From Amoebophrya sp. A120 (taxonomy: Eukaryota; Protista; Dinoflagellata), in the NCBI GenBank assembly GCA_905178155.1, contig CAJINV010000020.1:1240001-1304000 (forward strand): a DNA stretch of 64,000 nucleotides, read 5' to 3'. The translations under genes were made by a program, and so were the position numbers. The notes under the pieces were generated by a model. The model did no database searches, was not told the DNA's origin, and saw only the letters and a program-made list of their open reading frames with translations. Numbering within the stretch: position 1 is the stretch's first letter; each line of letters begins with the position of its first letter. Of this stretch, positions 10,086 to 32,200 are shown piece by piece.

Positions 10086-13000
10086 TCAGATACATCCAGC
10101 ATGGTCTGGTTCGTCGCGCAGGATTAAAGTCGAGGAGAGATAATCTTCTTCCACAAAGTCGCTATCGTCGTCGTCACTAAGAGCACGGTTCAATTTATTT
10201 CCCCTGCTCGTCGACGCTCTAGTACCCCTTTTATTACTCGGCGCCGCCACCGCCACTTTGCGAATGCGAGACGGCTCGCCCGGGCTGCCTTCAGAAGTGA
10301 GATTTTGATGGGCAGAAGTCATGATGTTTTCCGTCGTTGGAAGATTCATCTCGTCCGGCCCTCCTGCGACCCTTTTTGCTTGACCTCTCGCTAATAATCC
10401 TCGCGGTGGACGGTCGAAAGACAGAAGACCCGGAGGTTGTACTGGCCCGGTTTTCTTGCTGCTCGTTGTTGAACCTGTCGAAGTAACTGGAGCTCGAAGA
10501 TGATCTCCATTTATCACAGAAGGAGGTCCGGTGGTGCTCTGCAAGGGCAAGGCTGAGGATCCGAAAAGAGATGACGTCGTGGTCGACGACGAGGACCCCA
10601 TCGCTAGTTGTAAAGAGCTTGTGCTGTTCTTGTACGAGGATGTCACCGTTGTGCCACTGTTTATTTCTTGCGGATTTTTTTCCTGAAAACAATCGAATGG
10701 GGTTTTCGATCCCAGCACCTCGCGCATCTTCGCTGCGGAGTTCGACGCTTTCGTTGCGTAGTATCCGGTTCGAGATCTGGTTTTTCCCAAGGAATTCGTG
10801 ATCAGTTGCCCATTCGGGCCGAATTTCGATGGCGAGCTAGAATTCGATAAGGAGTTTCGCTGCGGCGATAGAATCACCAGAGCTGGGGAATGCGAAGTTG
10901 TGAAATAATCGCTACTGCCTCTGCCACTGCTGTGCCGGGAACGGGATGGGGGCTGCAGTAAGGAAGTGCGGCGGCTGATGATTTTTGTTTGTGGGGAAGC
11001 CAAAGGGCTCGCGGAACAAACGGATTTTGCAGTGCCTTGAGGAGGTGGGGAAGAAGCCGCCAATTGTGTAGTTGAGCCGCGCTCCTTCTGTGTAGTAATC
11101 ACTGGTCCACCACCAGGTGGTCCATCTGCTCCAAGATGAACTGTAGAAGAACTACTGGCCGCACCGAGAAGCAGTGCGCCGGAGTTCGCCGCCAGCGTGC
11201 TGGCTTTCGCACTCGGAGGTGGGTACGTCACATTCGGTCCGAAAACAAGCACGTTCGGAGAGGGAGGGGCAAGATTCTTGGAAGAAGCACAACTAGACAT
11301 CGATGGCTGTAAAGAATACCCAGCCGGCGGCCCGGCAGCTGTAGCGTTCACACTTTGCGGCAGCTTCACTTCCGAGATCGCTGTTGTAAACAGGTTCTCG
11401 TAGAAAGATTGGTCCTCTTCGCCAGGAGAATCTTGTTGTTCTAATTCAGCACCTGAGAAGATGGAAGTAGCACAACGAATCTCCTTGTCCGCAGTTGACC
11501 TTGCAGCTGCGCCGCCAACTAGTACAGTGGCACCTTGATGCTGCTCCACGACCTCCGCAGCAGGTGGTCTATCAGAGATGAAAGATGCAGGAGGAACTAC
11601 TTCTGGCTGTGGCTCCTTTATTCGTTTCTCCACTTTGACCCCCACCGCCCTTGCAAATTTCTCAAACATCGCCTCCGCCGACCTCGCAATTTCCTTTTCA
11701 TTCTCCGCGTCAACTGTATGGCATTCTCAAGTGTTACATTCTCAACTGTTACATGAGTTTGTAATGCAAGAATGGCAAAAATGCAATGGTGAAGATTGCG
11801 CCTTTTGCATTACAGGTTCGGCACAGATTTAGATGCTGTTTAGCCCTACTTTGGAAATTTGTCATGAGAAGCAGCTTGGTGATAGTGATACGGATGAGAG
11901 TTCTGCATGACAAATCATGCAACAGTTAAGAATGTAACAGTTGAGAACGCCATAAACTGTCCAAAAGTCGTCGAAGCCTTCGTTTCTCCAGTCCGGCGGC
12001 TCAAAAGCGGACTCAAACCCGTTGACGATCCCCTTTGCCTTCGCCAAACTCGCATTTCGGATGGTCGCGTGGTTCTCGCGCTGCATGATCCGAAACACGC
12101 ACAGTCTGGCACTCATCTGCAGGTAAACACAGTGCAAGTGCAGGGTTGGCGGGGAAGATGACGGCAAGGAGGAAGTTGATATTAATACCGCGGATGAATC
12201 GTTTTTGTTCTTTGCGTTGTTCCTGTGATCTGCTATCAGCTGTGCCTTCATGGCGTCGATGAGGCCGTTGGCTTCCCGGACCCAGTGGGCCCGTTGCCCG
12301 GGGTCGACATTGGTGCGATCGATGATCACGTTGCAGCCTGGCTTTCCGGAGCCGTACGCAATTCCGACCGCGCGTCGCATCTTTTTGATGCATGCCTCGC
12401 GGGACTTTAGCTCGTCCTGGCAAATGACGTGGCAAAAATCGTTTGGTATTTCATTTACCTGCTCGAGTATAATTTGTGCGGAGCTCGAGCTTGTTTTCTT
12501 TTTCTTCTTACCACCAGTAGTGCCTGATTGTTGCGCCGTAGAAGTAGATGAAGGCGAACTACAACACAGCTGCGAAAACGTGCTTTTCCCCGACCCGGGC
12601 AACCCCACTAAAACGACGACGTTCAGGTGAAAGGGGTTCTGAGCAAAGATTTCTATTCTCTCGCCCTGCTCTTCCGCAAATTTCGCGAGGTTCAGCATAC
12701 TTCTCTCCCGGTCCCGGTTTGCGAAGCTCATCAGCTCTAGCCTAGCGGCGCTGGCCACCGATTCGGCGTATTTCGGTGGGTTTTGCTTCAACCTCGCCGT
12801 CTCCCGGGATGACAAAGTGGAGGTAAAAGATGCTGTAGGGGGAAGAGTTGCGTTTGGGTCTGTCCCTGTCAGGTCCAGCAGGCTCGTCCCAACAGCACTC
12901 CTCGCCCCGAACAAACCGCTGCTGCCGTGGAAGCTGCGCACCTCGCCGTCCATGTAGCGCGGACCGTCCTCCGGCTCGTGGGGGCTCTGCTCGTTGAGAA

Positions 13001-15406
13001 GTTCTTCCAATTCGAAGTCCGAATGCAAATCTTCATCATCCAGCCATGGCTCTTCTTCGTCTGGATTGTCCTCGTGTGGTTCCTCCTCGGAAATCCGGCC
13101 CAGAAGTTTGTTGTTCTTTTGCTTTTTCAAGTCCGGCTGAGGAACCAGACTCGTCCGCAGAGAATCGACAACAGGGACTTTTCTTCTGGACCGAAAGGTG
13201 AGCCGCATGTTCCGGATGCCGTTGCTGAATTCGGAGGTTTCGGGCCCTCGCGGACTGGAGTTGTAATTCTGATGAAAGAACCGGTCTTGGTCCGCCTCCG
13301 CTAAGTCAGCACTCGAGGATAATGCGGCTTTGGTCTCATCCACTACTTGGGTTGCAGCAGCCGCGGGAAGCTGCAACACGGTTCCGATGTGCGGATCCGT
13401 GACTAGGATCTGAGTGGCCTCCTTGACAACTTGATCTAATAACGACCGCCGGGCGTGAATCTGCACCGTGACGACAATTTTCTCCGTTCTCAAGTCGTAT
13501 CTCCATTTATCCTTCAGCACCACGTGCGCCACCCCGCGCCACTCTTTACTTAGTCTTTCAATCGCCTTCTCTGCGGAAGCGATGCGGATAAAGTTCTTAG
13601 CCGTGAGGGATTCTCCTCTATTCTGCGCCGCGCGCGTGTTTGGCGTTACGGGAAATTCGTCCGAGGGAGTGCAGATCTCCTCTGGTTTCTGCTCCAACTC
13701 GACCGAGAAATCCAGCGCCACGGCGGTTAACGGCTCCACGGTCAGGATGGTTTCGTGCGCCTTGCCATAAACCTCAAAAAGATGAAACGGGTCGGTCGAT
13801 AGCTCCAGACCGCCCTCCTCCCGCTTGAAGCTGATCGGCTGCGGGGACGGGCCGTGGGACTTGCTGGCTTTTTTCCTGTTTGACGGCGAGGATGCGAAGT
13901 TTTGGCTGTTCGAGGATTTCGTTGGCGACCTGTACCGGGGACGAATGCCCGTAATCACGTCCCCCTGGTTCAGGTGCTGGATCCACGCAGGGCCGAGGCG
14001 CTTTTGCTTTTCACCGTCGGAAGTGGCCGCTAGCCTGCTAGTACTACTTCCACCAACAGCTGCTGTGTGGTCCTTATCCTGCTGCACAATGGCCACATTC
14101 AACCTTTTCACTGCTAACCCCACGGATGTTCGCCACAGGTATTTTCGCATCTGCGCCGCGGGGCGTTTCTTGTTGGGAGACCGGGAGCGGGATCGTGTAC
14201 TAGGGGAAGTAGTAGACACATGATGATCAGTGGCTGCTCTTATTTTGGTGCCGTCAGGATGATGCTCTTCTTCTTCCTCCTCTACCTCCTCCTCGAACCC
14301 TTCAAACAAAATCGATTTCTCGTGCGCCACGCAGGCTGGAACTGCGATGCCGTGGTCAAGACGCGAGGGAGCTCTTCTCGCACGACCCGCAGGTGGAACA
14401 ACTTCTTCTTGTCCACCGGCTTGAAGTAGATTGAGATTCTTACCTTGCGATAATGAACTATCAATCTTCTCGACCTCGTCCCGGATTTGCTGCAAAGAGT
14501 TTTGCAACCGCTTCGTCATTTCCTCGACGAAGGATTCGTGGTACTCTAGAACTGTTTCGTCTTCCTCATCGTCTTCCAACGCCTTCAAGTGCAGCTGAGC
14601 GGCGGTCAGGTTGACAGCTCCCGGTGGACTGCTTGTCTCAAGCGCAACATTCTTATTCAGCGCTCGTACATCTTCTATGTGCAAGTTTTTCACCTGCAGA
14701 CTGGTGTATCCTATCTGCGTGAGCACGTCGCCGACTTCCAGCCCCGTTTTCTCCCTTTCCACTTCGGTGACAAGAAAGCCTTCCCCCGGGACAGCCTCCA
14801 TGTCGATATAACAGTGCACAACTCCCCCTGCCCCTCATTTGTATAGCATGAACGGCAATCGCAATAGAAGCATCAACACCAATGCTGGTTTTGCATGACA
14901 AATTTGCCCTGGAGCATGGTGCTATTTGGGCTACCAGAACTTGTCATGCAAACAGTGCCAAGAGGCAAGCGGTGGCTTGGGTATTTTGCATCACAAATGA
15001 GGAGGAGGGGGAGTTGTGCACTGTCATAGTCGACACCGAGTGTGCAGTCGCGGTCGAGGAGGAGGGAGATTTGCAGGGACTTTTCGTCGTATACTTCGAT
15101 ACTGTTCAACATCTGCTGGGTAGACTCGTTTCCTCTTTCTGGAGCTTGTTGTACTCGAGCACCGTGTTGTGGTGCCACGCCCAGGTCCGCCTCGGCGTAG
15201 TTCCAGAGCTGAAACGGAGAGGGGAGGTCCTGCGTTTGTTCCTGAAGTCCTTGATGTTCGCCTTCATCGTCAACCGAACAACCGGCTACAAGTCCTTCTG
15301 TAGCTCGGCCTGGAGTGATGTCCCCCATGACCCCCGGGGGGAAGGCTGGGAGGAACATTCCCGGATCTTGATAGTACGCACTGTCTCCGCCGGTTGGGGT
15401 GTTCAT
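10086..15406 (-). CDS. PDZ-like domain + AAA_33 / polynucleotide-kinase-like P-loop protein with long low-complexity regions; two introner introns
   Basis: Excising 14807-15028 builds a PDZ-like stretch: TLGVD|MEAVPGEGFLVTEVEREKTGLEVGDVLTQIG. Kinase motifs: Walker A VLVGLPGSGKST, ICQDELKSR, VIIDRTNVDPGQRAHW, RIMQRENH, FEPPDWRNEGFD. Excising 11717-11954 joins FWTV|DAENEKE into ORF 10086..11669. Confidence 0.8.
11717..11954. mobile_element. Introner, family D (238 bp)
   Basis: TIR of about 40 bp: TATGGCATTCTCAAgTGTTACATTCTcAACTGTTaCATGA / TCATGcAACAGTTaAGAATGTAACAgTTGAGAAcGCCATA, with an internal 14-bp tandem duplication. Perfect TSD aactg (11712-11716, 11955-11959). Confidence 0.93.
14807..15028. 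mobile_element. Introner, family E (222 bp)
   Basis: TIR of about 36 bp: TATaACAGTGCACAACTCCCCCTgCcCCTCATTTGT / ACAAATGAGGaGgAGGGGGAGTTGTGCACTGTcATA. Perfect TSD gtcga (14802-14806, 15029-15033). Confidence 0.93.
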
Positions 15407-16268: not shown

Positions 16269-17864
16269 TCACCCCAGCATCAAACTCCTCTGCACGAACT
16301 TGTTCGCCTTCTGCTTCCGGTTTGCCTTTTTCCGCACCCGTAACAAAGCCGCGCGGTTGGACTCCGGCGGCAACTCGCCCATGTTTCTCCTGTGGAAGGA
16401 CTGCATCCTTTCGGAGACGGCGGACGTGACCTGCGTGGACCGGAGACTGCTGACGGACTTCTCCGGCACGACAGACTGCTCCACGAAGCGGTTGCGACCG
16501 ATCTTCTTCGGCTTCAAGACGATGCCTGTTTTGGTTTTATGATTATGCTGGAAAAGTTTCAGTATAGATGATCATGACAGGCTGCTCTACTTCTGCCAGT
16601 GATTGCTCACAAGAACTACACCTCAGTTTTTTTTTACGAACAAGGGCCAGAAAGACCTGCGATTCAAACGAAAAGGGAACATTAGTAAACGTAAAAAATC
16701 ACTACCTTTTTCCTCGAGTTTCACGTTTTCTTGTTTCGCGTCCTCGATGAAAGCCTTCTGCTCCTCCTTCGCCTTGTCGTCCTTCACCATTTCGCGCATC
16801 ATGTTCGGAATTTGCCCGATCGATTTTTCCAGCAGTTTCTGCCGCTTCTTGGCGGTCAACTCCAGATCCATATTTTTTACCCGTTCCTCCTTGTTCCGCT
16901 GCGTCTTCGTCTTGCGCTCGTCCCGCTGCAGCTTCTTCTTGTCGCTGTTTGATGGAGTCTTTTTCGTCCCCTTATTTGCCCCGGTTGCAGCAGCTTCCTC
17001 GTCCTCGTTTTCCTCCTCAAGAACCGTATCCATGTCCAATTTGTGGTCTTCCTTCATCAACCTCTTGTACTCCTTCAACTTCTCCAAATCGCTCATCTGC
17101 AGCAATTCCTCCTTCGTATACGCGTCCAGCAACCGCATGGTCATCGGTTTTTTTGCCCGAAGGTCCTTCATCTGCTCCTCTTCGTTCTTCAAATGCTCTT
17201 CCGCGACGATCTCGTCCAGTTTCGTTTCGAAAATCTCTTCACCCGGGTTCATCGACAACCCGTGGTCGGGGAGCACGGTTGCGGGAGCTAGGGAAGTTTT
17301 CTGCCCGAGGGTTTGCGGCTTCGATTTCGGGCGCAGCACCGCTTCGCTGTTCACCTTCCGGAATTTCAGGTTGTTGTTGGTGAGGAGTGGTTTGAGATTT
17401 TTGTCCTTGATCAGCAGCTCCGAGTCCGTTTTCTTCTTGTCCGCATCCTGTTCCAAAGTCGTCGCCCACAGGTCGAAAGCGTGCTTCTCGCCCGCCTTCT
17501 TGTGGTGGAGTTCTAGTTGCTTGCCCTTGTGCGCTGGAATATTTGCAGTTTTGTCGTTGCTCTTCTGCACAGAAGCTTTCTTCTCGTGTTTCAGCCGGTT
17601 CTCCTCGCGTTTCCTCGTCTTTTCAATTTTTGCGAGTTCGTAGTTGGACAATTTACTTAAATTCTTTTGCTTCTTCTCCAAGTCGGTTTTTCTCCGGATT
17701 TTTCTCGGCAAATTCTTCGTACTTCCGACCGTGTCGAGAACGAAGAGTTTTCCGGTCGCGAGCTTCTCCTGAGCGGCTCTCTGCTCGTTTTTCCGCTCCA
17801 GATTCTTCACGGCGTCGCTCACGTCGATCTTGCGAGCCCGGGACTTCGCGTTCTTCTTCACCAT
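16269..17864 (-). CDS. NOP53: Ribosome biogenesis protein NOP53 (GLTSCR2/PICT1 family); GT-AG intron 16526-16705
   Basis: N-terminal RKIDVSD and LFVLDTVG (arch-interacting LFxxD motif); PDHGLSMNP (family pGxSYNP); spliced C-terminus EEKG|IVLKPKKIGRNRF...SSLRS...ERMQSFHRRNMGE. Confidence 0.9.
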
Positions 17865-19412
17865 GATCTTGGTTTTTAGCGAGGTTCTGCAATGAAAAAG
17901 GAAAAGTAGATTATTGAGCTGCTAGTGCTAGGTCGTGCAACGAGTCTTGTGAAGCAATCTTTTCACTACTTGACTCTATGTTGAATAATTGTCGTCCTGA
18001 GAAAACTCGTCGATGCGTCAGCACATTTTAACCATTGGAAAATAACGAAGAGAATTGCAACTGTTCAATCTTCTCATTTCTGACTTTCTCAAACAGGAGA
18101 ACTACTCAGGATCTACTTCATTAAGTAGAAGACCACGCATGATTTCATTGTTGCAACACATCAGAGAGCGGCAAACGAGCTCATTATGGGATCATCTGGC
18201 ATGTACTGTTGATCCTGATTTTTCACTTCCAACACAACTTTTTTGTTCTATAAAGCGATCTTTCATCTCCATTTGTTCGAACTTCAACATCCAATTACAA
18301 TGAAGAGTGTGACCATAGCTATTGATCGAGACAAATCAGAGCGTGTCGTGTTTGTCTTTGCTTTTCAGTTTCTGAAGGCCGGATGTTGATCATGGAGTTG
18401 TTTGATTGTTGATCATATATCCGTTTCACAAAAATGAACAAAAGCAGCAATGGATGCCAGAAGAACACTGGGCGCGCACGAAATCTCGTTCGCCAGGAAA
18501 CGCATGCGTCCACATGTTTTGCTCTTGCTTCTGTTTTTGTCGCCAGGGAACCTGATATCATCGAATCACAGGTTATTTCTGAATCTTAGCTCAGAGGGTA
18601 GGGGTTCGTCGTGTGAATTCGCTCGGAAAAGCAGAGACGTAGCTCTGCTAAAATAGGGTCATCAATCCGCCTTGCCTTGGTTGATGTCGTTGTGGTAGGC
18701 AATACAAGGGGTACTAGGGTGATCCAAATTGAATACTTTTTGTTCGCAAAATGTAACTTGAAGATTTGATTACTGGTTGTCTTGTTGACGGAAGTCAAAA
18801 CTCAACTCTTTTGCAGTTCTGCAATTGTTGACAATGGAGACGATACTCGACAAGTGTGAGTTCGCAGGAACCGAACTACAAGACCGCTTGAAAAAAGTAG
18901 AATGTGAGGGACAAACAGTTTAAAGATGAGACCATGCTGCTCCTTGTGCAGACCTAACTTCTCGACGATTGGTGGAATAAAGTGTCGTAGTCGCTTATTT
19001 TTTGAAATCTCGTTTTATTTTCTGTCTACAGTTTCTGTACGGTACGGGAGAGACACAGGAGTCCACCATGTTGATACAAGCAGCTAGCACACGCCACAGT
19101 AGCTTGCTCTTGTCAACATGATAACTACCGAAGCGACGCACTATTTCTGTTCGTCACCCAAGTACACACATGTTATGAAACACAATGGACTTGAAAATGA
19201 AAAAAATTGCGCACATACCGGGCTCGGATCGTTAAACACATTCTGCCTCATCACATTAAACCTGAGCGCTCTACTTGAAGTCTTACGGTGAATTCACATG
19301 GCTGCCGCGTCTCTACGTACTGCCTATCAAACAATAACAAGCTGAGCTTCTACACAAGAATAAAGGAAGGATCACCTCTACAGTTTCACTTTCGTCATTT
19401 GCTCCGCCTCTG

Positions 19413-22400
19413 TCACCAGTGCCGCGCCCGTTTGGCCGGTGGACTGGCACGCGCGGAGCCCTGGCTCTGCTGTGATTGATTTTGGTTTCGCTCCTCCAAC
19501 AGGTAATTGGTCACACCCTCATCATTGTACTCAAAGAGCACTAACGCCTCATGAATTTGTCTCGTCGTGGGCCATCCTTTCCCGTCATCCAACGTCGACT
19601 GAATTTGGCTGATCTGAGCCTGTTCAGTCTCCGAAAGATTTGCCACCCACGTCTGCTCATCTTCCAAGAGCAAATGGTTTATTGCTGCAACAGAATTACT
19701 TGAAGCAGGGAGCGCTCTACTACTTGCCGAGGAAGACAAAGCTGCGGCGTGGTTTTGATTTTGGTTGAAAATGTTCCCACTCACATTCTGACTTGGCAGG
19801 AGTTGCTCCTCTTTCCGCAACCGAGCATGCGGATTCGCAAGCTCGCCGAAAGCGAAATCGTCAGTAGTTTGCTGCGTATTCCCTGGGTAGCCGAAGGGAC
19901 GATTCGTACTCGATGAAGACAAGCCATGCGACATCACTGGAGAGGCGGCCTTGTACAACAAGCTGCTGCTTCGGAACGGATCGCTTGTGGGCGCGGCACT
20001 CCTCGTTGCACCATCGCCAAAATTCATTTTTCCTGGCTGGTCGCTACTGTCGCTCCTGCCCCGATCACTCGCTGCCGCAAGCTTCATCGGGGGCGGTAGA
20101 GCTGCACCAACAGCGCTTTCTCCTTGCTTATCGGCATCCGAATCCGTTAATCCACAGAAAAAAACCCATCCACATCCATTTTTTGCATGACAAACACAGA
20201 ATTTTATGCATGTTTTGCATGACAAATTCGATGTGGACGGGTGTTTTTTCCTGGATACCGTTGTAAGGATCGTGACTTGCTTGTCCTCCTCGTCCATTTC
20301 CACCTCCGAGTCCGAGAGTAAGTCGATGACCTCCCGCTCATTTTTTACTACTCCAGGCACAACAAGACTGTTCCCTGTACTCGCACGGCGGTTGCTGGCG
20401 CTGATGATGCAAATGTCGTTGTTCCTTTGCTCCTGACTTTCGGTGACCATCATCTGCAATGACTGCGACTGACTTTCGCGCCAATTTTCCAGATCCCGCT
20501 CCTGGGACTCGTTGTCTTCGGTAATGGTGTCCACCGCCCGCTGGAGCTCCCAGTTGTGATCCTCGAGAGACTGTTCTGCATCTTCGGGAGAAATGTCCTG
20601 CTCTTGAAAAATCTCCAGCAGCATCGCGATGTTCTGTTGTTTTTCTTGCTCCCATAGTGCGTGGAATTGGTTCATATTCTTATCCATATCGCCGTCAGTA
20701 GCTGTCAAAGCCGGCTTGTTGTTCGTGCTACTGCTGGATGAAGACGATGACGAAGAGCTGGACGCGCCAGCCGGGCCTGCGAGAATTCCGCCAAATGATG
20801 TGGAGGGCTGCTTGCTCGCAGAAAACGACGTCGTCGAGCTGCCACCGCTTCCTGCGCCAAGAGTAGAAGTCGCACCGGTGGTGGTGTTTTTGTTCAAATC
20901 TAAATTACCAACTTCGATCTCCATGTCGTCAAATGGATTCCAGTTTTCGTCCACCAAATAGCTCTCATCGTCCTTCTTGGTATCGACATCAAATGCGATT
21001 TTGTCTTTGTCTGCTTGATTTATTATCCCCGTGTGCAGCTGTCGATGCCGGTTCGCTTGGTCTAGAGTTGACGTACCTCGCACCGGTGCAGGGGCGCTGA
21101 TGCTCTTTGTCACCACGTCTCCAAACGGTAATGGAAGAGCTGGAACGGAAGACTCCTGTTGCTGCAGAGGAAGTTTCGAGGAAGACGAGGAACTAGCAGA
21201 TGATGTCGCGGGTAGGAACTTCACAGGCTCGCTGACGGCGCGCCCGCCCAAATCCCGCTGGGCTCTCGAGAGCGTCGGGACAGATGGCGGAAGTGGTGCT
21301 GGCAGTCCCCCTCCCCTTTTCTCACGTTTCTGGTCCATATATGCAGAGTATTTCGCAGCGACTTCGTCGTAGAGCTCCTTATCATCGCCCACGAAGTGGT
21401 GCCTGCTGCAAACGCGGACCTTGGCTTTGTTTTTCATCGCCTCGTCCAGCTCAGCCTGAATCTGCAAGCGCGCAGCGGACGTCTTGGCATTGAGTAACCT
21501 CTGCTCTAGCTGCTTGATGTCTCTTTTCTTCACTGTCTGATTCCTGGCTCGCTCCTCGTCCAATTTCTGCTGCGCCAGCGCGCGTTTCTCGGCCGTCTTC
21601 GCGTTGTTTACTTGTTCCTGCAGCTTTTTCTCGGTGAGCTTCCCGCCGATGTTACCCGCCACCGGCTTTCCGTTGTTGGTATTTGGACACCAGACCAGGT
21701 GCTGTAGCCCGGTCCTGACATCACGGACCATCTTCGTGTCGCGTGCTGGCCCGAGTCGGGGGTGGGCGGTGACGGAGTTGTAGCGGAGGTCGTTCAGTAG
21801 GTGTTGCTTGCCCGCGAGTTCCGACACACGTGGGCCAATACCGTACCCCTGGAACTCGGGGAGCACCACCAACCTCTGCTCCTGCATCAAAAACTCCGAC
21901 GCGTTGCCGACTAGTACGGAAGTACACAAGAACCCGGCCGCCGTCTCCTCACGCAGACACTGCAGCAGCGGGTGGGCTTTGCGGGAGGCGACGCGGAGGA
22001 GAAAAAAATGTCCATTGTTGGCCAACTTGCCGGACAGGTAGTGGTGGTTTTTAAATGCGCTGTCCCAGGCGGATTGGCCGACTTCCTTGTTTTCCATCCG
22101 GCGAAGCTCGAACCCAATCTGGACCGGAGAGAAAAGGCCCTCGACGTCCGTGGTGGTGAGGGAGGAAGAAGAAGAGCTGCTGCCGTTGTTGTTTCCTGGC
22201 GCAAATCCACCAGCAGCCGCGGCGCTCATGTTCCCGGCCCGTACCGGCGTCGGCGGGTCCCGCGATTTCATCTGTTGCGGCTCCACCGCTAATATGCTGA
22301 CTTTCCCGGTCAGCGAGTGCAAGGCCCAATTGGGTTTCAATGTGCCCAGGGTATCGGTGAAAAGCCCCGCGACGATGAGCCGCACCTTGCTGTAGCGGTT

Positions 22401-24577
22401 GTCCGTTCGCAGGACCTTCTGCAGGTTGTCCGAAAACTTCGCTGCCGCTATCCTGTCCATGCTGGACGTAAACTCGTCGACGCACACTATGACCTCGCTT
22501 CCTGGTGCCCACGATGCTTTGACGAGAAGCAGTGCTATCTGAACTCGCTGCTGCTCCGTCGTAGAGAGTATGCATTTCAAATATGTCTGGGTGTGGATTT
22601 CTTGTCATGCAAGTTTTCAAGGTGGACAGCGAGTTCTGTGACGCACGAATACAAATCGCCCAGCGCGTTTCCCTTTTTGTCGTGCTGCAAGTCAGTCTGT
22701 CAACATGCGATAGCGATTGACAATCACGAATGAATCTGCATTAAGAATCAACATCGAATAAAATAAACTTGTAATACGCTGATGATTGCTGTGCAAACGG
22801 CTACCCCTACCCTGCAGTGCGGGTATAGGCAACACAAGTTTCCAGACCCAGAAAAATTTGCAATGTATAGATAGCTCGACGTACGTCCTCCCAAGAGTCT
22901 CGGCCGGCAGCTGTGTCAACTTCGGCCCTTCGGGTGCATCACTGTCCGCGAAGAGATCCGAGACGGGTGCAGCTGTTGCTGTGGCAGCACTGCCCTGCAA
23001 TTCCTCCAGGTCCGCCAAGTCCGAGAGAATTACTGGCGCCTCCGGACCTCCTTCCACCTGCGGAATGGCAAGGATTTGGCGCATTGCCGTCGTCTTCCCG
23101 CTGCCCGAGGGCCCGACTATGTAGCCGATTTTTGCGCTGTATGTCGGCTGCCCGGGGGGCTTCGGATCCACTACGCCCGTGAACACGCGATGGCGGGGGT
23201 TCACCATGTGGACCGAGGTCGTGCTTTCGCCATCGAATTCGAAATCGAAGGCATGCGCCGCATCGTACACCTTGTCACTCATAGGAATTCTTCTCGTCAG
23301 CCGCTTATCCAAAAGAGAAAGTCAGCGCGCTAGTGTAGGCGTGATAACAAAACAAAAAATATGCTCTTGCACACCTGCAGCTACTAGCGGATTCATCAAC
23401 TCATGTCCATCATCATCAAATTCATAATCATAGATTACGGCTTGGCAACGAGGACATGATCTAACATGACACCTCCGTGCGTTGCTGTGGTGTGACAGTC
23501 GAATTAGCTGAAGCACAGAACTACACGAGCGTGCTCATCATTTGCGGGGATACTCTTTTTGTAATGTTGCGCCCGGACGTATCAGCTTTCTCCCGAGCTT
23601 CTTCACAAGTCCCTCATCCGCATCGAGGTCATTCGCTTCGTCCGCAGGCTGCTCGCCGGTCCACGCTTTCCTCGTCGCCCAGTATCCCTGTGGGTTGATA
23701 TACCTGTACTCGCGGTCGAAGATCTGCATCCCGGGCGCCGAAAAGGTCAGCACCGGACGGCAAGGTTGATCAGTGGGGCGGCGAATCACCTCACCGGAGT
23801 CCGCAAGGACTACCCACTCTGGCTGCAGGAACGCGACGGCCTCCGGCTTTGTCGTGGCGACCAACACGCCCTGGAGGTTCTGCGTCCGCACCAGTTTCCC
23901 GAACGACGACGCCATGGAGGCCGCGGAGTTGGGCTCGACGACGGCGGCGAAATCGTCGACCACCATGAAGCTCTTGACATCCGCCGCGAGTCGTGCTCTG
24001 CTTTGTTCCCCGTTCGACAACGCGGAGTAGGGTCGACACCAACTCGGTATCTGGGATAGTTATTTTTGTTCGAAGATCAGAAGCATTAGCATATCCATCG
24101 CGGAAGTGCTTTCTTGACGTCTCCACAAAACCACTGCGCATGTCAATGATACTGCTATTGCCATGAAGCAAGCATGAAAACAAAAACGCGCAGTAGCATT
24201 CTCTATTGAAGCAAAAATCATACATAGTCACGATAAACAAGAATCGACATTCGTACCTTATTCAAGCCCACCGATCCCAAGTTGTCCATGGACAATTGGG
24301 GATGGTCTATTATTGCCTTTTCCGCGTTTTCCCTGCGCCCAAACCAGGCTGTTCCACTAGCTGACTCGCCGACGTTCTGCTGCGATTCCACATTCAAGCC
24401 GTTGACCTCCCGTAGATACCTCTTCATCGCGATTAGCTTCCTTGTTTTTCCGCTAGCTGACGGTCCTATCACCACACCGATTGCAAACTGTTTCCGCAAC
24501 ACCGACTTGATGTCTTCGGAGAGTTGCTCGCCAGCGACCAGCGGGCCCGCGGTCATATCCACGTCTAGAGACGTCAT
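19413..24577 (-). CDS. Tandem ABC-ATPase x2 + Mom-like GNAT acetyltransferase with C-terminal CUE, SIM and UBA-like modules; introns 24051-24256 (GT-AG), 23304-23555, about 22567-22872, about 20147-20260
   Basis: ABC1: IGPSASGKT, GLNK|IPSWCRPYSALSNGEQSRARLA, MVVDDF, FLQPEWV. ABC2: FDFEFDG, VGPSGSGKTT, EL|STTEQQR, CVDEFTSSMDR, LKPNW. GNAT: FKNHHYL, RLVVLPEFQGYGIG, SVTAHPRLG. CUE-like NIAMLLEIF...NWELQRAVDTI; SIM-like EVIDLLSDSE; UBA-like IHEALVLFEYNDEGVTNYLLE. Confidence 0.85.
20149..20257. mobile_element. Introner, family C (109 bp); in frame and stop-free
   Basis: AAT...ATA ends (left TAT mutated), perfect TSD ccgtt (20144-20148, 20258-20262), clearly homologous to 2416-2525. Element plus TSD is 114 nt (38 codons). 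Confidence 0.9.
22569..22869. mobile_element. Introner, family B-related (301 bp)
   Basis: TIR tatgcatttcaaatatgTCTGGGTgTGGA / TCCAGACCCAGAaaaatttgcaatgtata. TSD gagag / gatag. Excision restores the ABC signature region VEL|STTEQQR. Confidence 0.88.
23306..23552. mobile_element. Degenerate introner, family F (247 bp)
   Basis: TATCC...AGCGCGCTAGTGTAG / CTACACGAGCGTGCT...GGATA. TSD largely eroded (ccgct / ctctt). GA-AG intron 23304-23555 joins LQK|RLTRR in frame. Confidence 0.75.
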
Positions 24578-25853
24578 CTTGGTTCCTTGCGGCCGCGCTT
24601 TCTCGTCAGTAATTCCGGAGTGGTTGGTGTTCGACGGAAGGCGAAGGCTTCACTTCAGAAAAGGAAAATCGACAGCACGGCGTTTAGGTGGTATCGAAAT
24701 CGATGAAGGTATAAAATTCATAAATCATGGTCACCATCACACACTTTGGTGCTAATGTACATTTCATTTTGTGTTCTTTGCCACGGAGAATGATGACGAA
24801 TCAATAAAGACAGTCACAGTTCATGTTGATAAAAAATGAGAAGCAATAGCAAATTTCAAAACTACTCACAACTTACACGATAATCATAATGTACTGGTCT
24901 CTTTCTCAGAACGAGTTGGTTCCCATCTTTTTGTTTCAATTACACATCACAATTTGCTTTTTCTTTTTCTACTCCCAGAAAAAAACGCTAGAAGAATTTG
25001 ATTTTCATTTTCTTTTGATTTTTCCCCCTCCATCATTCATGCTTGTCTATTATATTGTGGTCGTAGATGTCGCCTCGAGTTCAAGGTTCCTTTGTGTCGC
25101 AGCTAGAATAAGGGCGAGACAACCTACTTTCTAAAAGTTTCTTCAGCAACATTTGTAGTTGCGAGTAATTGTAATACTTACAGAGACTACGCATCAATCG
25201 ACCAGATGAAAATGTAACTCATCAATTCTAGAAACCCGGATGTACGAATGCCTCATACCAAACGACCACCGCCCTGGGCATTCCAACAAAAATTTCTCAA
25301 ATACACCCCCTAAGAACGTACCAAAGATCCCTCAACGCTCTCGCTCACTCGATTCGCTTCCACTCATATTTCTCATTTCAGGGTAGATAAGAAGATCAAG
25401 AAGATCAGAATGAAGTCGTATCAAGTAGCTGGGCTTTGTGATTTATGAAAATTTCAGGGTGGAAGATGGGACGCATTTTAGTTTTGTTCTCGAAGAGCGC
25501 ATTGATGAATAATTTACATTTTTTACAGGGGAAGACAAAGACAAGCTCGATCTGCACGCGATAAGATTTTCCTCAACGCATTTCGATTTCGATTTTTGTT
25601 TTTCGGAACACTAAGCCGAGCGGACCAGGACAAGGACATCTAGCAAGAGTCGCAAGGAAAACGACAAACCAAAACAGTGGCTAGTAGAACTAGAACAATC
25701 TGATGAAAATGAACGTTTGACTTCATATGGGCCTATGCGCCAGGTCGTTGTAGTTTTCCTCCGTCCACCTACAGAAGTGGTCTCAACAGTGTTCGTGTAC
25801 ATCTACATGTTCGAATGCATTTCAGCATCACAGATTATACGACGGTCGTCGTG

Positions 25854-28048
25854 TCATTTTGAGGACATCAAGATTCTCCTATCGCCGTGTTCATTCAATC
25901 CTCCCCGTGCACCACCAGCCACACCACCTGCTCCCGCATAGCCATACGGCATATAGGATGTTGTTGAGCTTGCATTCATCATATTTGGTTGCTGTGCGGC
26001 GGCGTAGATCGTTGGTGACGAGGCCTGTTGCTGCATTTGTGGCGGATAGCCACCTGTAGCATTCCCTGGATTCGGATTTCCGTACGCCATGCGCTGTGGC
26101 TGCTGAGTGTAGCCTCCGTAAAGTTGCGTTGGAATTTGGTGTTGCTGTGCTGGGGTTGTACCGCTGTTGTACATGATCGCAGTGTGCATGGGCGGACTGC
26201 TCGGTGGCGTTGCGTACACAGCCATTGGATTATTTCGTGGGGCGGGTTGGAAAAGCAGCTGACTATTTGACATCATCGGTGGCGAAGTTGTACCTCCGCT
26301 GACTGTGTCGTGTGTACTCCCCCGCCGGTACTGCGGCGAACTCGGCGTGCTCTTCGTGCCCGAGCTGTTGCGAAAAAAATCTTCTACTTCGTTGTGCATC
26401 ATGGTCGTGCGCGGCCGCGCGTACTCGTATTGGGGCGAGTAGGTCGACGGTGGCGGCGTCGGCCGGGAGAGGGACGACGTTGTTGATCCCTGCGCTGGCA
26501 TCGTCGCGCGATTCGACGCGTTGTACTGTTGGGATTGATTCAGCCTGGAAGACGCCATATTTGTTCCGCTCTGCACAGAAGTTAGTTCTGGTCTACTATT
26601 TCTCGCGCTGATCCCCTGGTCCTCGCCCTCCATATTGATTCCGAGCAGAACCTCGCCGATCTTCTTGTTTTTGTGCTCCAGCGTGACCCAACCCTCGAAT
26701 TTGCCGCGGAAGTTTCGGAGAACTTCCTTTACGGAGACGTGCGACTCGCCCTCGCGCTTGTTCATGCGAAATGTGCGTTGCCCGTGAAGAATCACCTGCA
26801 GGTAGCTGTCCGTGTGCCAGTGGAAAAAGGTGAAGTTCTCGACGCGGTCGCAGTAAACCTGTGGATTTCAATCCGTGAGTAGCGTTGAAAGTGATGAGAT
26901 GCAAATCGATAAAGATGAGATAGCGTTGCAAGAAAGCACCTCTTCCATGTATCAAGATAAAGATGAAGTTGTGTTTCAGATGCACCAGAAGTCAACAAGA
27001 CGATGCCGTAGCAGAAAATTTGTACCAGTGCCCTTGGTTGGTGCAACTCTGTCCAGGTCATCATCTGCTGGGACCTGCCGTCCAGCGCCACCTCGATTTT
27101 GAAGGTCCCGGCTTTCTCCAGATTCCGGAACCCCATCACGATCACTTCCAGCACGGAAAACTTTGTTTTATTGTTGTCCTCCTCCTCGTAGTATTGGTCC
27201 TCGTTTTCCTCGTCACTGAAGCCTGATTCGCTAGTGCTGCTGTCCGCGTCGTAATTCCTCTGCGTCTCCGGGAAATCGCCCCGTCTAGCTCCTGCCGGCG
27301 GCGCCATCGGCGAATTTCCGCGGGAAGTTGCGCTATGCCAGTCGGGGGAACTGGAGGAATTCGTTGTGGTGCGTTGGGGGTAATTCCCGTTATTGTTGAA
27401 TGAGCCCGGTCGGTTATTGAAATTGGAGTTTTGTTGGCCCTGCTGGGTTGATGAACCTCTGCCAGCTGCGTTTGGTCTCTGATTGTTACCAGTACGTTGC
27501 CCACCTCGCGAGAAGTCCTCAAAGGGGTCGAAGTTTGGCGGCACTGCAGACTCAAAAGGATCGAACCCGGGAGGCACTTCTTGCTTCGGCTGATTCGTCG
27601 TCCTGTTCGCAGATGAGGAAGCTGCGCCTGCAGCTCCGGGTCCGGAAGCAGGTGTTCCAGTTGTTGTTCCGGCCTTTGGCTTCGCCGCGCCACCAGTGGT
27701 CGTTCCTGCTGTGGCCGGTTTTGCTGTTCCAGCTGCTGCTGCGTTTTTCGCATTGCCTGCTGCAGTAGTTCCAGCTCCACCCGCACTGGACTTGTTTTTC
27801 GTTCCTGTTTTGTTCGCGTCTGTCTTTTTCTTCGGTTTGTATTTGAAGTTGCCCGTCTTTTCATCGTAAAGCCGGTTCAGTTCTCGGTAGGACGAGTCTA
27901 TCCGCTGAAACTCTGCCGTTTCCCCCTTCTTGTCCGGGTGGTGGATGCGAACCAACTCTCTGTACTTCGCCTTGAGCAACTTCTGGGTCGGATACAACAG
28001 CTGAATCTCGTCCTGGTCGGGACGGGAATCTAGGCCGTAGTACTCCAT
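25854..28048 (-). CDS. DnaJ (J-domain) + C2 domain protein with Pro/Gln/Tyr-rich tail; GT-AG intron 26859-27025
   Basis: J domain LKAKYRELVRIHHPDKKGETAEFQRIDSSY with HPD motif. C2-like LEVIVMGFRNL...RAL|VYCDRVENFTF...YLQVILHG...EGWVTLEHKNKKIGEVLLGI. An upstream exon is possible (AG at about 28070). Confidence 0.82.
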
Positions 28049-29270
28049 CGCGCGTACGAAAGCCCGCCTCTATTGGTCGGTGCGTGCTTGCCAGAAGAGC
28101 TTAGGCGGTTCCGCGCTCGCTCAAGAGAGCCTCAGGAGCTTCGCCATTGTCTTCTTGTTTGCAAAGACTCCCTGTTAGCTCAAATACGAGACTATAGGGA
28201 TCATGACGCTCCTGAGACGTGATTATATTGCGGTGAGTGAAGCCAAAAGAAAAAGATACTGCTATTGCATATGCAAATATTGTGCTCAAAGAACTTTTAC
28301 TTTATGGATCGCGCATGATAGAAAACATATGTTTCAGTTTACCTTTTGCGCAACCGCAATCGCAGTGGTATTGAAGTAGATGCTTTGGACTGAGGACATC
28401 AAAAGTTCTTCCCTATGTATGTGTGTGAACGGAGAGCGAAATACAAATACTCGAAAAACTAGGACTACGAATAAAACGTAAATATGCGTCGAAAGTTTCG
28501 TAATTCATATCATACTCATATGAGAACTTCTAACCACCGGGGTCCTGCATTTGCGAATGCTAGATTACTGCTTTGTTTTCATGGCACTTTGCCTGCCACT
28601 TCACAACCAGAGTTCCCTACCAAATAGACGTCTCCGCTCGGTAATTGCACGCTGTTTTCCGTGTAAGTACGACCACCAGTTTTGTGTAGCACGATAGCAG
28701 TTGTGATAAAGCTTCATACAGCCATGGCAACCGATGCGACTAGGCGTAGCTGCCTTGTAGTTTCGTAGCTGCCGACTAAACACTTCCGGTTTTTTCATCT
28801 CACGAAACGACAAAAACGATTTTGCGATGCGCATGCTCTGTGTTCACGAAAAAACAACCGAAACAATTTGAATTTTTGCCCGTTCAAAGATATTAACCGA
28901 TGCTGTTTCGGCCCTTGCCGTGCGGTGGAGGCATCCGAAGCAAAAAGAGCGAGCGCAGGCCCAAAAATGCTACTTGCAGTAGACAGTTTGCAAAGTAGTA
29001 GTCCTGAAGCTGTTCCAGTTGTCTGCTTCTTCAACGAAGTATTCTCTTCATTGTCTCTACTGTTTGTACGAAGACCAGTTTTGCACTGTAGTTCATCGGG
29101 TTGTAGGATGATCAAAAATCCTCGCCAAATTTTTTTCCAGTTTTGCACTGGTGGCATTCTGGCCTTTCTATTGATTTTCGGTATTTCTATTTGAATCGCT
29201 CTAATTTTTTGGCCCAGTAGAATATCGTCAGTTTCGAGTTAATCGGGATTTTTGTTGCAGATGCAAAACC

Positions 29271-32200
29271 CTACAAATTCGTCCCCGCCCCGCCCCCTCC
29301 GCTATTGGAAGCTGCATGCAACTTTTTCCAGCGCCCGAGAAACTGCGCCGCGTCCTTCAGCACTGCTTCCGCAAACGACCGGTAGATGGAGCGCTTGATC
29401 GATGTCGTGTCCTGCTCTACTGCAGGTCCGTTTGTTGCTGATCCTGTCCCAACATTCGAAAAGTTCGCACCCGGTTGCTGCGTCGTCGAAGCGACCGTCT
29501 GATACCAGACGACCGCCTGGATCAACACCCGCACAAGCTTTACACACCCCTCAAAGGTCCATTCCTCCACCACTTTCAACGTTCGCGGGGTGGCCAAAGC
29601 AATCAGCCGGCTCTTCTGCTCTTCCACACTCTGCCGCCGTCTGTCCTTCCACTCCTCCTCGTTTTTCTGGAAAATACCGACCACCTTGGCCGCGGTGGCC
29701 ACGTCGTGCGCTGCGGTCGAGAGCAACGTGGGGAGTTGATCTGCTGGATGCAAATTTTTATCGTCCTCGTCGACGCGGCCATTATTTCCTGCAGTGCGAA
29801 TATCACCTCCTGCGTCGTTAGTCGTTCCGCCTAAAACAACAGAATCTGCTGCTGCGGCCTTCGTGTCTATCATGTCAACATCCACTTCATCTGCTACTTG
29901 TTCGTCACCGCCTTTGCTTTCAAAAATCTTTTTGTTTTCGGCAAAAGACCCAACGGCTTTCTTCAAGTTTGTTCCATCTTCATTTTCACTTCCCGGTTCA
30001 GAATCATCTTCTTGAGAGTCTCGGGGTCGTGTGCCAGGGCCCGAGCTGTCCACGCTTTTCGGCGAGGTCGGACTGGTCAGCGCGCTGTCTTTGTTTACTA
30101 CAATCTCGCCGTTGTTGTTGTTGAAATTGAATTGCTGCTTCTTGTTTCTGTGGTTCATGTTGTGTCTTGGACCACTAGTACAACTGCGCTCAGCTTTCTC
30201 CTTTTCCTCCTCCAGAATAATGACCTGCCAAAGATCAAACACTCGCTCCAAAAACCCGCGCTCCCGCACGTGGACATCTTGCAGCGTACCGAGAAGCTCG
30301 CGTAGGAGGAGGAGCAGCGCGGATCGGACCTGCGCAGTCCGGATGGTTTTTTTGGACAAGTCCTGGTCAGTTTCGTCTTCCAAAAAATCGTCCTCGTCCA
30401 CTGACAAGCAGGCTGCAGCGGCCCCGCCTACCGGGGAAGCAGGCGTAAGGTCATGACCGTTCTTCGCACCAAACTTGTTCTCAACATCGCCTCCTGTACG
30501 AAAGTCCCCGACAACTACTTCCGTTGTCTTCATCTCTGAATTTACTGCAGCTGTAAGTGGTGAAAGCGCTGATGATGAAAACGATGTTCGTGCCTGTTCT
30601 TTCCGCACTCCGAACAGGTAGAAAACTTTTTCGCAGAACACGAGCTCCCTCTGCCGAAAAAGAAGCAGGGCTGCCGCGCGCTCCAGCAATTCCAGTGGTT
30701 GCACAATACGTGGAAGGTGCTTTTTTTCGTACTCTGGGAAAAGGTCAGCGACGTAATCCTCGACCGTTGCGGAAAACAACGAAGGGAGTTGGTGTGATTG
30801 TGAGTGGTAAGAAGAAGAGCTTTGTTGCTGTTGCACTGCTGGAGCTGGCCCCTCGTACAATCGCATACAGAGTCTGCGAAACACCGGCAGCACTTGCTGC
30901 ACCACAAGACAGGTGTCATTGCCACACCAAAAGGTCCTATTTGGTTGCTGGGAAGAACTCGTCGCGTTTTGACCGCTATGATTACTCGCGCCTCCTGCGT
31001 AGTAGTTCTGCCGACTTGTCGTCGCCCCCGCTGGCGTGGTGATTGTGACTCCGAGAGCGGACTTGCTCCCTCCCGAAGAGTGCTGCTTGCCGACTGCGTG
31101 GCCGCCTCGTTGGTCCTGCTTTCGCGCAGATTGCGCGCCACTATTGCCGGGGATACTCAGATGCGATGACCCATTCCTATTGCTAGTACCCATCCCAGAA
31201 TTCGTCTGTTTCTTGTTCCTGCTGTTTAGTTTCACGCTGACTAACAAACTGTCCAGAACCAGCGCTGGCATGGAAATGAGCGTCGCGTCAAATGTGCTGA
31301 GATCCGGGTAGCAGTACTCATCTTCCTGCGTTCTTGTGCCTGCTCCTGACGCTGCATCAAAGAAACAAGTTTGATTCGCCGCGGCTGCTGCGTTCTTGCC
31401 GCCGCGACCGTGCCTGTTACTTCCCCGCGCAGCTCCTCCTACTGCGCTCCCGCCGGTCTGCGGCGCGAACAGGCTGCCCAGGAGCGTCGGTGTGGATGAA
31501 GCCTCGAGCTCGGTTTTGTTCTTTGGAGACACGGCATTTCCACTGCCTGCGGACCCAGATTTGGAAGTACCACCACCCGGCCCACTGCCCGAAGTCGCTT
31601 GTCCTGGTCCACCTGCCGAAGAGGACGCTGAACTAAACGCATCACTCGGACACGCCAACAAAGTCCAGAGAAACGGAATCTTTTCCGAGGCACACAGTCT
31701 CCGCGCGCGGTCCACGATCCTCGCGAGGAGATCCGGCGGCAGCGACGGCGAGGCACGCCCCCAGACGGAGGTGAGTTTCGACCATGGTAAAAGGTGGAAC
31801 TCGTACAGATCGGAGGATTTATTGTTCCCGCCTTGATCCACATTCGATCGCGATGAGTGCTTCGCACCGACAAACGTCGTGGTTGCGTGACTGATCAGGT
31901 CCAAAGGTTGCAAATTGAGATTGCTACTTGCAATGTTGTTGCCGCTTGCGACGACCTGCAGTGTGCTCGAGCTGTGACCCCGAGAAGAGGACGATGTGGA
32001 TGTGCCGGTGAGTTGTTTCTTGTTGTTTATCAATCCCGTTGCGCCCGTGCTTGACTTACTCGACTGATTTTGTTCCTGTTGCTCTTCTAGCGAGCCGTGC
32101 CGAAAATTATTTGCTCCCCGCGAAGAAGAGGCTGAAGACCCGCCTACGACAGCACCGGTCGCGCCACCGTAACTGTGAAGATGACCGTGAAAATTATGAC

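Follow-up and report, generated by a model that had tools for sequence, protein, structure and literature searches.

The stretch analysed here (the window) comprises 64,000 nucleotides of the parasitic marine dinoflagellate Amoebophrya sp. A120, contig CAJINV010000020.1, positions 1,240,001 to 1,304,000, and carries on its minus strand, at 24577..19413, a gene for two ABC ATPase domains followed by a GNAT acyltransferase domain and a long tail. Alignment of RNA-like contigs from runs X1 and X3 (their RNA nature is a tool's guess) with window positions 19000-25000 resolved five exons and four introns, with joints at 20144-20257, 22562-22867, 23301-23552 and 24051-24256. Joining the exons at these four contig-supported joints yields a single open reading frame (ORF) of 1,428 amino acids. 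One X1 contig of 5,570 nt crosses all four joints, and none of them is present in run X5, which represents unspliced DNA. The twin-ABC-GNAT gene is one real, transcribed gene, and the spliced contigs rule out separate genes. A sequence-only reading of the window had proposed a single gene behind split ORFs, and all the motif positions it named were recovered; the single gene was right, but the count of four pieces was not, as it overlooked the in-frame intron at 20144-20257 inside a long ORF.

Exon 1 (coding part, 24257..24577, from contig joints and translation) begins at the first ATG and holds the Walker A motif of the first ATPase, GPSASGKT at 24466. Intron 1 (24051..24256, 206 nt; joint in X1 and X3 contigs, not in X5) has canonical GT..AG ends, whereas the three others are non-GT-AG. 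Exon 2 (23553..24050) contains the signature LSNGEQ (24020), a Walker B that is degenerate (VVDDF, 23963) and, where the switch His would be, Lys175; it is followed by intron 2 (23301..23552, 252 nt, contig joint), which has TA..GG ends and no inverted arms of the introner kind among the 25 longest pairs listed. Exon 3 (22868..23300) encodes the N-terminal half of the second ATPase with its Walker A, GPSGSGKT (23114); exon 4 (20258..22561) its C-terminal half, the GNAT, a linker, a UBA domain and a SUMO-interacting motif (SIM)-like element; and exon 5 (coding part, 19413..20143) runs through the stop codon. Introns 3 and 4 are non-canonical and introner-type. Intron 3 (22562..22867, 306 nt) has 29-nt inverted arms (83% complementary), a short direct repeat and high-copy ends; intron 4 (20144..20257, 114 nt), in frame and stop-free, has 33-nt arms and a 5-nt direct repeat. 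X5 depth reaches 22,000-31,000 in bins with the intron 3 ends versus ~44 elsewhere, and at the ends of both introns it is several hundred times that of single-copy DNA. The accessible part of Farhat et al. (2021, PMC7789003) describes Amoebophrya introner elements as genome-repeated, with inverted repeats, 3-5-nt direct repeats and non-canonical ends; introns 3 and 4 resemble them in terminal inverted repeats, 4-5-nt direct repeats, non-GT-AG ends, many genomic copies and absence from transcripts. The gene is hidden from a plain ORF view because of these introner-type introns.

The first ATPase domain (ABC1, residues 14-196, 23784..24538) spans intron 1 and the second (ABC2, residues 274-506, 22296..23300) spans intron 3; both keep Walker A. 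ABC1, which had been suspected of being weakened, lacks both the catalytic Glu and the switch His, and is degenerate in most relatives as well. ABC2 retains the expected Asp-Glu pair in an intact Walker B (CVDEF, 22484), but its signature reads LSTTE, with T419 replacing the Gly, and F485 replaces the switch His, a His-to-Phe change common to 7 of 13 close relatives inspected. Of 85 twin-ABC proteins, 28 retain the Walker B Glu in the first copy and 81 in the second; for the switch His the counts are 31 and 67, and for the signature Gly 82 and 69. A comparison set of 51 single-ABC proteins, all short and a few of them eukaryotic fragments, keeps these residues in 50, 44 and 48 cases, respectively. 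Judged by these residues, the copy 1 ATPase site is degenerate throughout the twin-ABC family. In ABC proteins, each ATP site pairs the Walker motifs of one domain with the signature of the other, and the joint decay of the first Walker B and the second signature fits a head-to-tail pair, which would contain one dead and one working site. In profile scans, the window pieces match no transmembrane family in Pfam, NCBIfam returns 0 families for three window pieces, and the NCBIfam transporter scores of relatives lie far below cut-off. An ABC transporter subunit is rejected on these grounds, there being neither a transmembrane family match nor a score with a curated transporter family.

The GNAT domain (residues about 562-807, 21393..22130) contains HHYL at 22046 and RLVVLPEFQGYGIG at 21875. 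Its AlphaFold model, built from a 115-row alignment, is confident (predicted local distance difference test, pLDDT, 84.6) and adopts a GNAT fold; Pfam alone gives only weak AAA/GNAT scores. H591, Y592, R647, Q655 and the Gly loop, 86-100% conserved across the 85 twin-ABC proteins, are intact in the window protein (the loop as QGYGIG), as are the family-invariant T682-H684-P685, R691 and W708 (motif THP..R). Arg644, present in 89% of the 85 relatives, is replaced by Gln here and by Val in the relative P0001. A basic helical insertion (about residues 728-796; 21 K/R versus 11 D/E) precedes the last GNAT strand, and in 88% of relatives the 60 residues beyond the GNAT core carry a net positive charge. 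The top rows of the PDB fold searches are tied generic GNATs (NatA/C/E/F, RimI, GCN5/PCAF and other protein or small-molecule enzymes) at 4-17% identity, with Kre33/NAT10 at rank 40; Mom (8bv8) and TmcA lie outside the rows shown by three such searches, an absence that excludes nothing. The ties carry no substrate information. In a viral structure library, the best match is the ABC-GNAT of Leptospira phage LE4 (E 7.2e-7), and a Salmonella-phage Mom model ranks 44th. A PDB sequence search with the ABC2-GNAT piece returned nothing significant.

The window protein is not a member of the Mom family, although the sequence-only reading had called it Mom-like. Pfam Mom (PF25680), to which Mu Mom itself scores 253 bits, is absent at E<=1, and direct comparison with Mu Mom is non-significant (BLASTP E 1.7, hhalign probability 0.6%, -1.7 bits with the family GNAT hidden Markov model). 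The protein also keeps a QGxGxG CoA (coenzyme A) loop, which Mom lacks at the aligned position. Like Mu Mom (PDB 8bv8), it has a GNAT fold with a late basic insertion, opens motif A with an Arg and carries an HY pair close to the N-terminus, and some of its phage homologues sit in Mom's genomic slot. The pair H591-Y592 aligns, non-significantly, with Mom H58-Y59, which matter for Mom activity according to the part of PMC13219725 available; the same part reports that Mom uses a Gly-tRNA donor and has no ATPase, and that TmcA places its acyl group on an aromatic base amine. In the window protein, the preserved QGYGIG loop speaks for acyl-CoA as the donor. As in TmcA/NAT10 (Kre33), an ATPase precedes, in the same chain, a GNAT whose acetyl-CoA loop is canonical, but the ATPases here are ABC-type, whereas that of TmcA/NAT10 is helicase-type. 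No TmcA/NAT10 family match was found in Pfam or NCBIfam, nor any sequence match to these enzymes in PDB searches.

The proposed phage-type ABC-GNAT core was borne out, with both the ABC1 piece (E 5.2e-20) and the GNAT piece (E 4.8e-19) matching the PHROG phage family phrog_11143, together with the N-terminal half of ABC2 (E 2e-4). In phages and bacteria, a GNAT coupled to an ABC ATPase is predicted to attach an acyl group to a nucleobase of DNA (Iyer, Zhang, Burroughs and Aravind 2013, as restated in the accessible portion of PMC7824862). In common with this system, the window protein has, in one chain, an ABC domain N-terminal to a GNAT, both homologous to those of the phage and bacterial proteins, and the motifs DEF(T/S)S, HHY, R.V..P..QG.G.G, THP..R and W, its Gln for the family Arg644 being the departure. 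It differs in its duplicated ABC with one degenerate site, the Glu being kept only in copy 2 and the switch His in neither; in its introns and its long tail with UBA, SIM and nuclear localisation signal (NLS)-like parts; and in its neighbours, Nop53 and DnaJ-like genes rather than formyltransferase or ParB genes.

Searching with the protein P0004 by tblastn matched 66 of 50,697 phage records, and tblastn also revealed a homologue, under other accession numbers, in Tenacibaculum phage pT24, the example organism of the restated prediction; in that phage (L001:4983-6155) the ABC-GNAT is annotated as two coding sequences in LC168164.1. In two Mu-like phages and one Porphyromonas phage (phiE255, Komp_PAO1_1 and the latter), the gene comes after the tail genes and ahead of a formyltransferase gene, at the place that com-mom takes in Mu; in Jace, LE3 and BiggityBass its position is close to the terminase, after a ParB-like gene. 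Among the 160 loci closest to the phiE255 protein, one phage-type subfamily, those with enough flank have a formyltransferase directly downstream in 63/78 bacterial and 59/66 viral cases and a ParB-like gene upstream in 28/77 and 53/72. Phage PX29 has an N6-methyltransferase-like gene, below cut-off, two genes downstream. A phage homologue had no blastn match in E. coli genomes. Against this pattern, in the 82 viral loci closest to the eukaryotic sequences the gene mostly stands alone (formyltransferase in 0/68 downstream neighbours; ParB-like genes in 2/76 upstream and 3/68 downstream), which suggests that the eukaryotic enzyme would not need a formyl partner and that acetyl-CoA would be the simplest donor. 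In phage Jace (L002:3525-6290), genes for ParB, ABC-GNAT, aspartate decarboxylase and a CoA-transferase III are consecutive, a row that would suggest a beta-alanyl or related acyl-CoA donor in that phage.

A profile search of 1.84 billion representative sequences gave 719 matches at E<=1e-30, of which the best 150 were listed. Of 188 sequences considered, 25 were redundant within their clusters and 5 had no usable GNAT; setting these aside left 158, a sample biased towards the query. These divide into 85 proteins with two ABCs, 53 short ones with one ABC and 20 long ones with one ABC. Rather than the one-off lateral acquisition that had been proposed, the window protein is one member of a broad protist twin-ABC family, most members of which have no ubiquitin-binding domain. 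A FastTree of ABC2 plus GNAT places all 85 twin-ABC proteins within a clade of 105 members (support 0.898) that branches from among short phage-type proteins; the GNAT-only tree (143 columns) did not recover them as one clade, so that a single origin of the twin-ABC form is suggested by the former tree alone. All 82 of the nearest viral loci have a single ABC, and no twin-ABC copy turned up when viral contigs were searched for one. Four proteins (P0013, P0077, P0087 and P0113) form an early-branching twin-ABC group with no close viral match, P0087 lying on metagenome contigs of 22-33 kb. The organism is known for 12 of 30 proteins looked up: nine are dinoflagellate (Amoebophrya, Gymnodinium smaydae and Cladocopium, two each, Durusdinium, Polarella and Pelagodinium), two foraminiferal (Elphidium and Nonionella, transcriptome-type records that may include prey) and one from the labyrinthulid Hondaea. 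Among named homologues, the closest to the window protein come from Amoebophrya sp. Ameob2 (56%) and A25 (39%); these matches, like the non-GT-AG introns, make Amoebophrya the likely host.

Extra domains occur in 3 of 30 long relatives at E<=1e-5, where the twin-ABC-GNAT is joined to a full Strawberry-notch helicase (P0043, Pelagodinium beii), a chromodomain (P0086, Elphidium) or a UPF0020 methyltransferase (P0070, Polarella). A scan of 16 relatives at E<=0.002 (three repeated) added UBA_4 and CUE above cut-off in P0133, an AT-hook in P0058, and a glyoxalase in P0060 below cut-off. In the non-core regions of the 85 proteins, AT-hook patterns appear in 6 (0.6 in shuffles), SIM-like patterns in 6 (2.1) and NLS-like patterns in 43 (23); a second count of AT-hooks on C-terminal tails gave 6/105 versus 0.86. 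The literature searched holds no description of a eukaryotic twin-ABC-GNAT family, although Iyer 2013, Krishnan 2020 or their supplements may already list members; the accessible parts of PMC12839542, PMC4738411 and 10.64898/2026.10.19.760177 contain nothing on it. What would be new is the eukaryotic twin-ABC branch, the phage ABC-GNAT system being an already published and still unproven prediction.

The tail of the window protein likely carries ubiquitin- and SUMO-binding parts, as judged from its sequence. Its best-conserved segment relative to P0001 is a UBA-like domain (20505..20640), which had been read as CUE-like but scores as UBA_4 (25.2 bits scanned alone against a cut-off of 21.8; 20.5 within the 1,063-amino-acid ORF). 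The SIM-like motif with acidic, serine-rich flank (20283..20330; VIDLLSDSE at 20330) was found as described, as a pattern match only. For the last domain (19479..19655), thought to be UBA-like, a second UBA/CUE-like helical unit is weakly indicated: ESM Atlas places it with CUE/UBA clusters at 0.75-0.78, a lead only, and its sole profile match is HBS1_N below cut-off (18.4 versus 26.4 bits). A single-sequence AlphaFold model of the unspliced tail is poor (mean pLDDT 48), with helices at both UBA positions and no confident bundle, and PDB sequence searches with each UBA piece gave nothing significant. Close to the C-terminus lies PPAKRAR (19422..19442; PAAKRRR in P0001), which we take to be an NLS-like basic motif. 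UBA_4 is above cut-off in P0001 and P0133 as well, which supports a UBA-like tail shared with close relatives. A local UBA profile run on the 85 twin-ABC proteins matched only the window protein and P0001, both of which had built it; P0126 has a UBA/SIM tail by eye only, extending the tail with P0133 to a small group that includes the window protein and has weak support, and the A25 protein (P0003) has only a SIM-like pattern. This confinement to a small clade suggests that the ubiquitin-reader tail is a lineage add-on rather than a family trait.

Upstream of the gene lies a DnaJ-like gene (25854-28069, minus strand; Pfam DnaJ below cut-off), whose orthologue is fused to the ABC-GNAT in gene model P0002 of a related organism, indicating conserved gene order; the fusion itself is probably a mis-merged model, since P0001 has no DnaJ part. 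This shared neighbour, together with the introns, rules out bacterial contamination. Downstream is an ordinary Nop53 gene (60S ribosome biogenesis; 16623-17921, minus strand). Elsewhere on the minus strand, ORFs at 45172-49168 presumably belong, from their translation, to a cation-chloride cotransporter (SLC12) gene; a 990-amino-acid ORF (11862-14834) has what we take to be a C-terminal P-loop kinase-like domain; and a 1,311-amino-acid ORF (59938-63873) has repeated units that we would label 'A(V/L)xQ(N/D)GxAL'.

Our best explanation, held tentatively, is that the protein acts in the nucleus as an acyltransferase of DNA bases that depends on acyl-CoA, with an asymmetric twin ABC as its switch and the UBA/SIM tail for targeting. 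On this reading, the five-exon gene encodes a twin-ABC-ATPase/GNAT enzyme of phage descent, likely nuclear, whose GNAT would transfer an acyl group (probably acetyl, taken from acyl-CoA) to a DNA base, as predicted for the family. The two ABC domains would pair head to tail within the chain, replacing the dimer of the single-ABC phage protein. The composite site of the copy 1 Walker B and switch with the copy 2 signature would be degenerate and mainly hold ATP, whereas the other, which keeps its Glu, may serve as a switch that clamps or opens the substrate, likely slowed here by the His-to-Phe change. The basic GNAT insertion may grip nucleic acid, and the putative UBA and SIM-like readers would likely steer the enzyme to ubiquitin- or SUMO-marked chromatin. 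In favour of a DNA base as target we counted the match of both ABC and GNAT to phrog_11143 with LE4 as best viral structure, the mom-slot location and the formyltransferase and ParB neighbours in phages, the Strawberry-notch, chromo and UPF0020 fusions with the excess of AT-hook and NLS-like patterns, and the UBA_4 of the window protein, P0001 and P0133 together with the conserved GNAT residues, the Mom-like HY pair and the positive charge beyond the core.

The same evidence was weighed for other substrates. That the GNAT was repurposed as, or always was, a protein acetyltransferase, acting on chromatin proteins (histones, DVNPs, repair factors) recognised by the UBA/SIM tail, is rather unlikely: protein GNATs head the structural matches, the CoA loop is canonical, and chromo and UBA fusions would suit histone-modifying enzymes, yet the tied matches do not discriminate, the F..HHY and THP..R motifs are common to phage proteins, some in the mom slot, and a fused ATPase occurs in nucleic-acid acetyltransferases such as TmcA/NAT10 and not in the protein enzymes listed. 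Less probable still is an RNA base acetyltransferase forming N4-acetylcytidine (ac4C) like TmcA/NAT10, with the twin ABC working on ribosomes or ribonucleoproteins in the manner of ABCE1/ABCF. In the PDB, ABCE1/RLI and ABCF proteins are indeed what the family profile matches best by sequence, but the ABCE match arises partly from having two ABC domains; likewise the rank of Kre33/NAT10 and the RNA-methyltransferase-type UPF0020 fusion of one relative are set against ParB-like, terminase and tail genes as phage neighbours and chromo and AT-hook modules that point to DNA or chromatin.

It is improbable that the enzyme is partly disabled here, a scaffold or reader linking ATP or acyl-CoA binding to ubiquitin/SUMO signalling. 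The losses of Glu and His in ABC1 and of the switch His and signature Gly in ABC2, and the replacement of Arg644 here and in P0001, would fit it, but no invariant GNAT residue has been lost, nor has either Walker A motif, and the recurrence of the His-to-Phe change among close relatives suggests an old, tolerated substitution and not decay. Least probable by far is acylation of a small molecule (nucleotide, polyamine or metabolite) and not a polymer: spermidine, aminoglycoside and indole-3-acetic acid (IAA) acetyltransferases are among the tied fold matches, and the Jace homologue adjoins decarboxylase and CoA-transferase genes, but these could equally supply an acyl donor, and the twin ATPase and the chromatin and ubiquitin modules would be left unexplained.

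The phage ABC-GNAT system was put forward as a prediction in 2013, and the literature consulted reports no measured activity for it. Its eukaryotic branch, in which the GNAT residues are intact and fusions to chromatin-type modules recur, lends independent support to a nucleic-acid or chromatin target, and Symbiodiniaceae, Amoebophrya and Hondaea offer cultured hosts in which to seek the mark. Acylated bases are labile, and routine hydrolysis could have missed them. One study reportedly concerns the enzyme for 5-hydroxymethyluracil (5-hmU), and another is said to deal with N4-acetylcytosine (4acC) in Arabidopsis DNA. 5-hmU, DVNP and histone-like proteins (HLPs) are treated in the accessible part of PMC6723414. 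If the substrate were protein, the enzyme would be a lineage-specific acetyltransferase of moderate interest; if DNA, it would be the enzyme that writes a base modification new to eukaryotes, in organisms with largely histone-free chromatin. On a wider scale, it is possible, though doubtful, that an early protist captured a phage DNA-acylating enzyme and duplicated its ATPase, and that the resulting multi-paralogue family in dinoflagellates, foraminifera and labyrinthulids writes a so far unrecognised acylated DNA base as a chromatin mark, with lineage-specific targeting modules (chromo, AT-hook and Strawberry-notch; ubiquitin/SUMO readers in Amoebophrya). Dinoflagellate chromatin would then owe a further component of viral type to such a capture, in addition to DVNP and 5-hmU.

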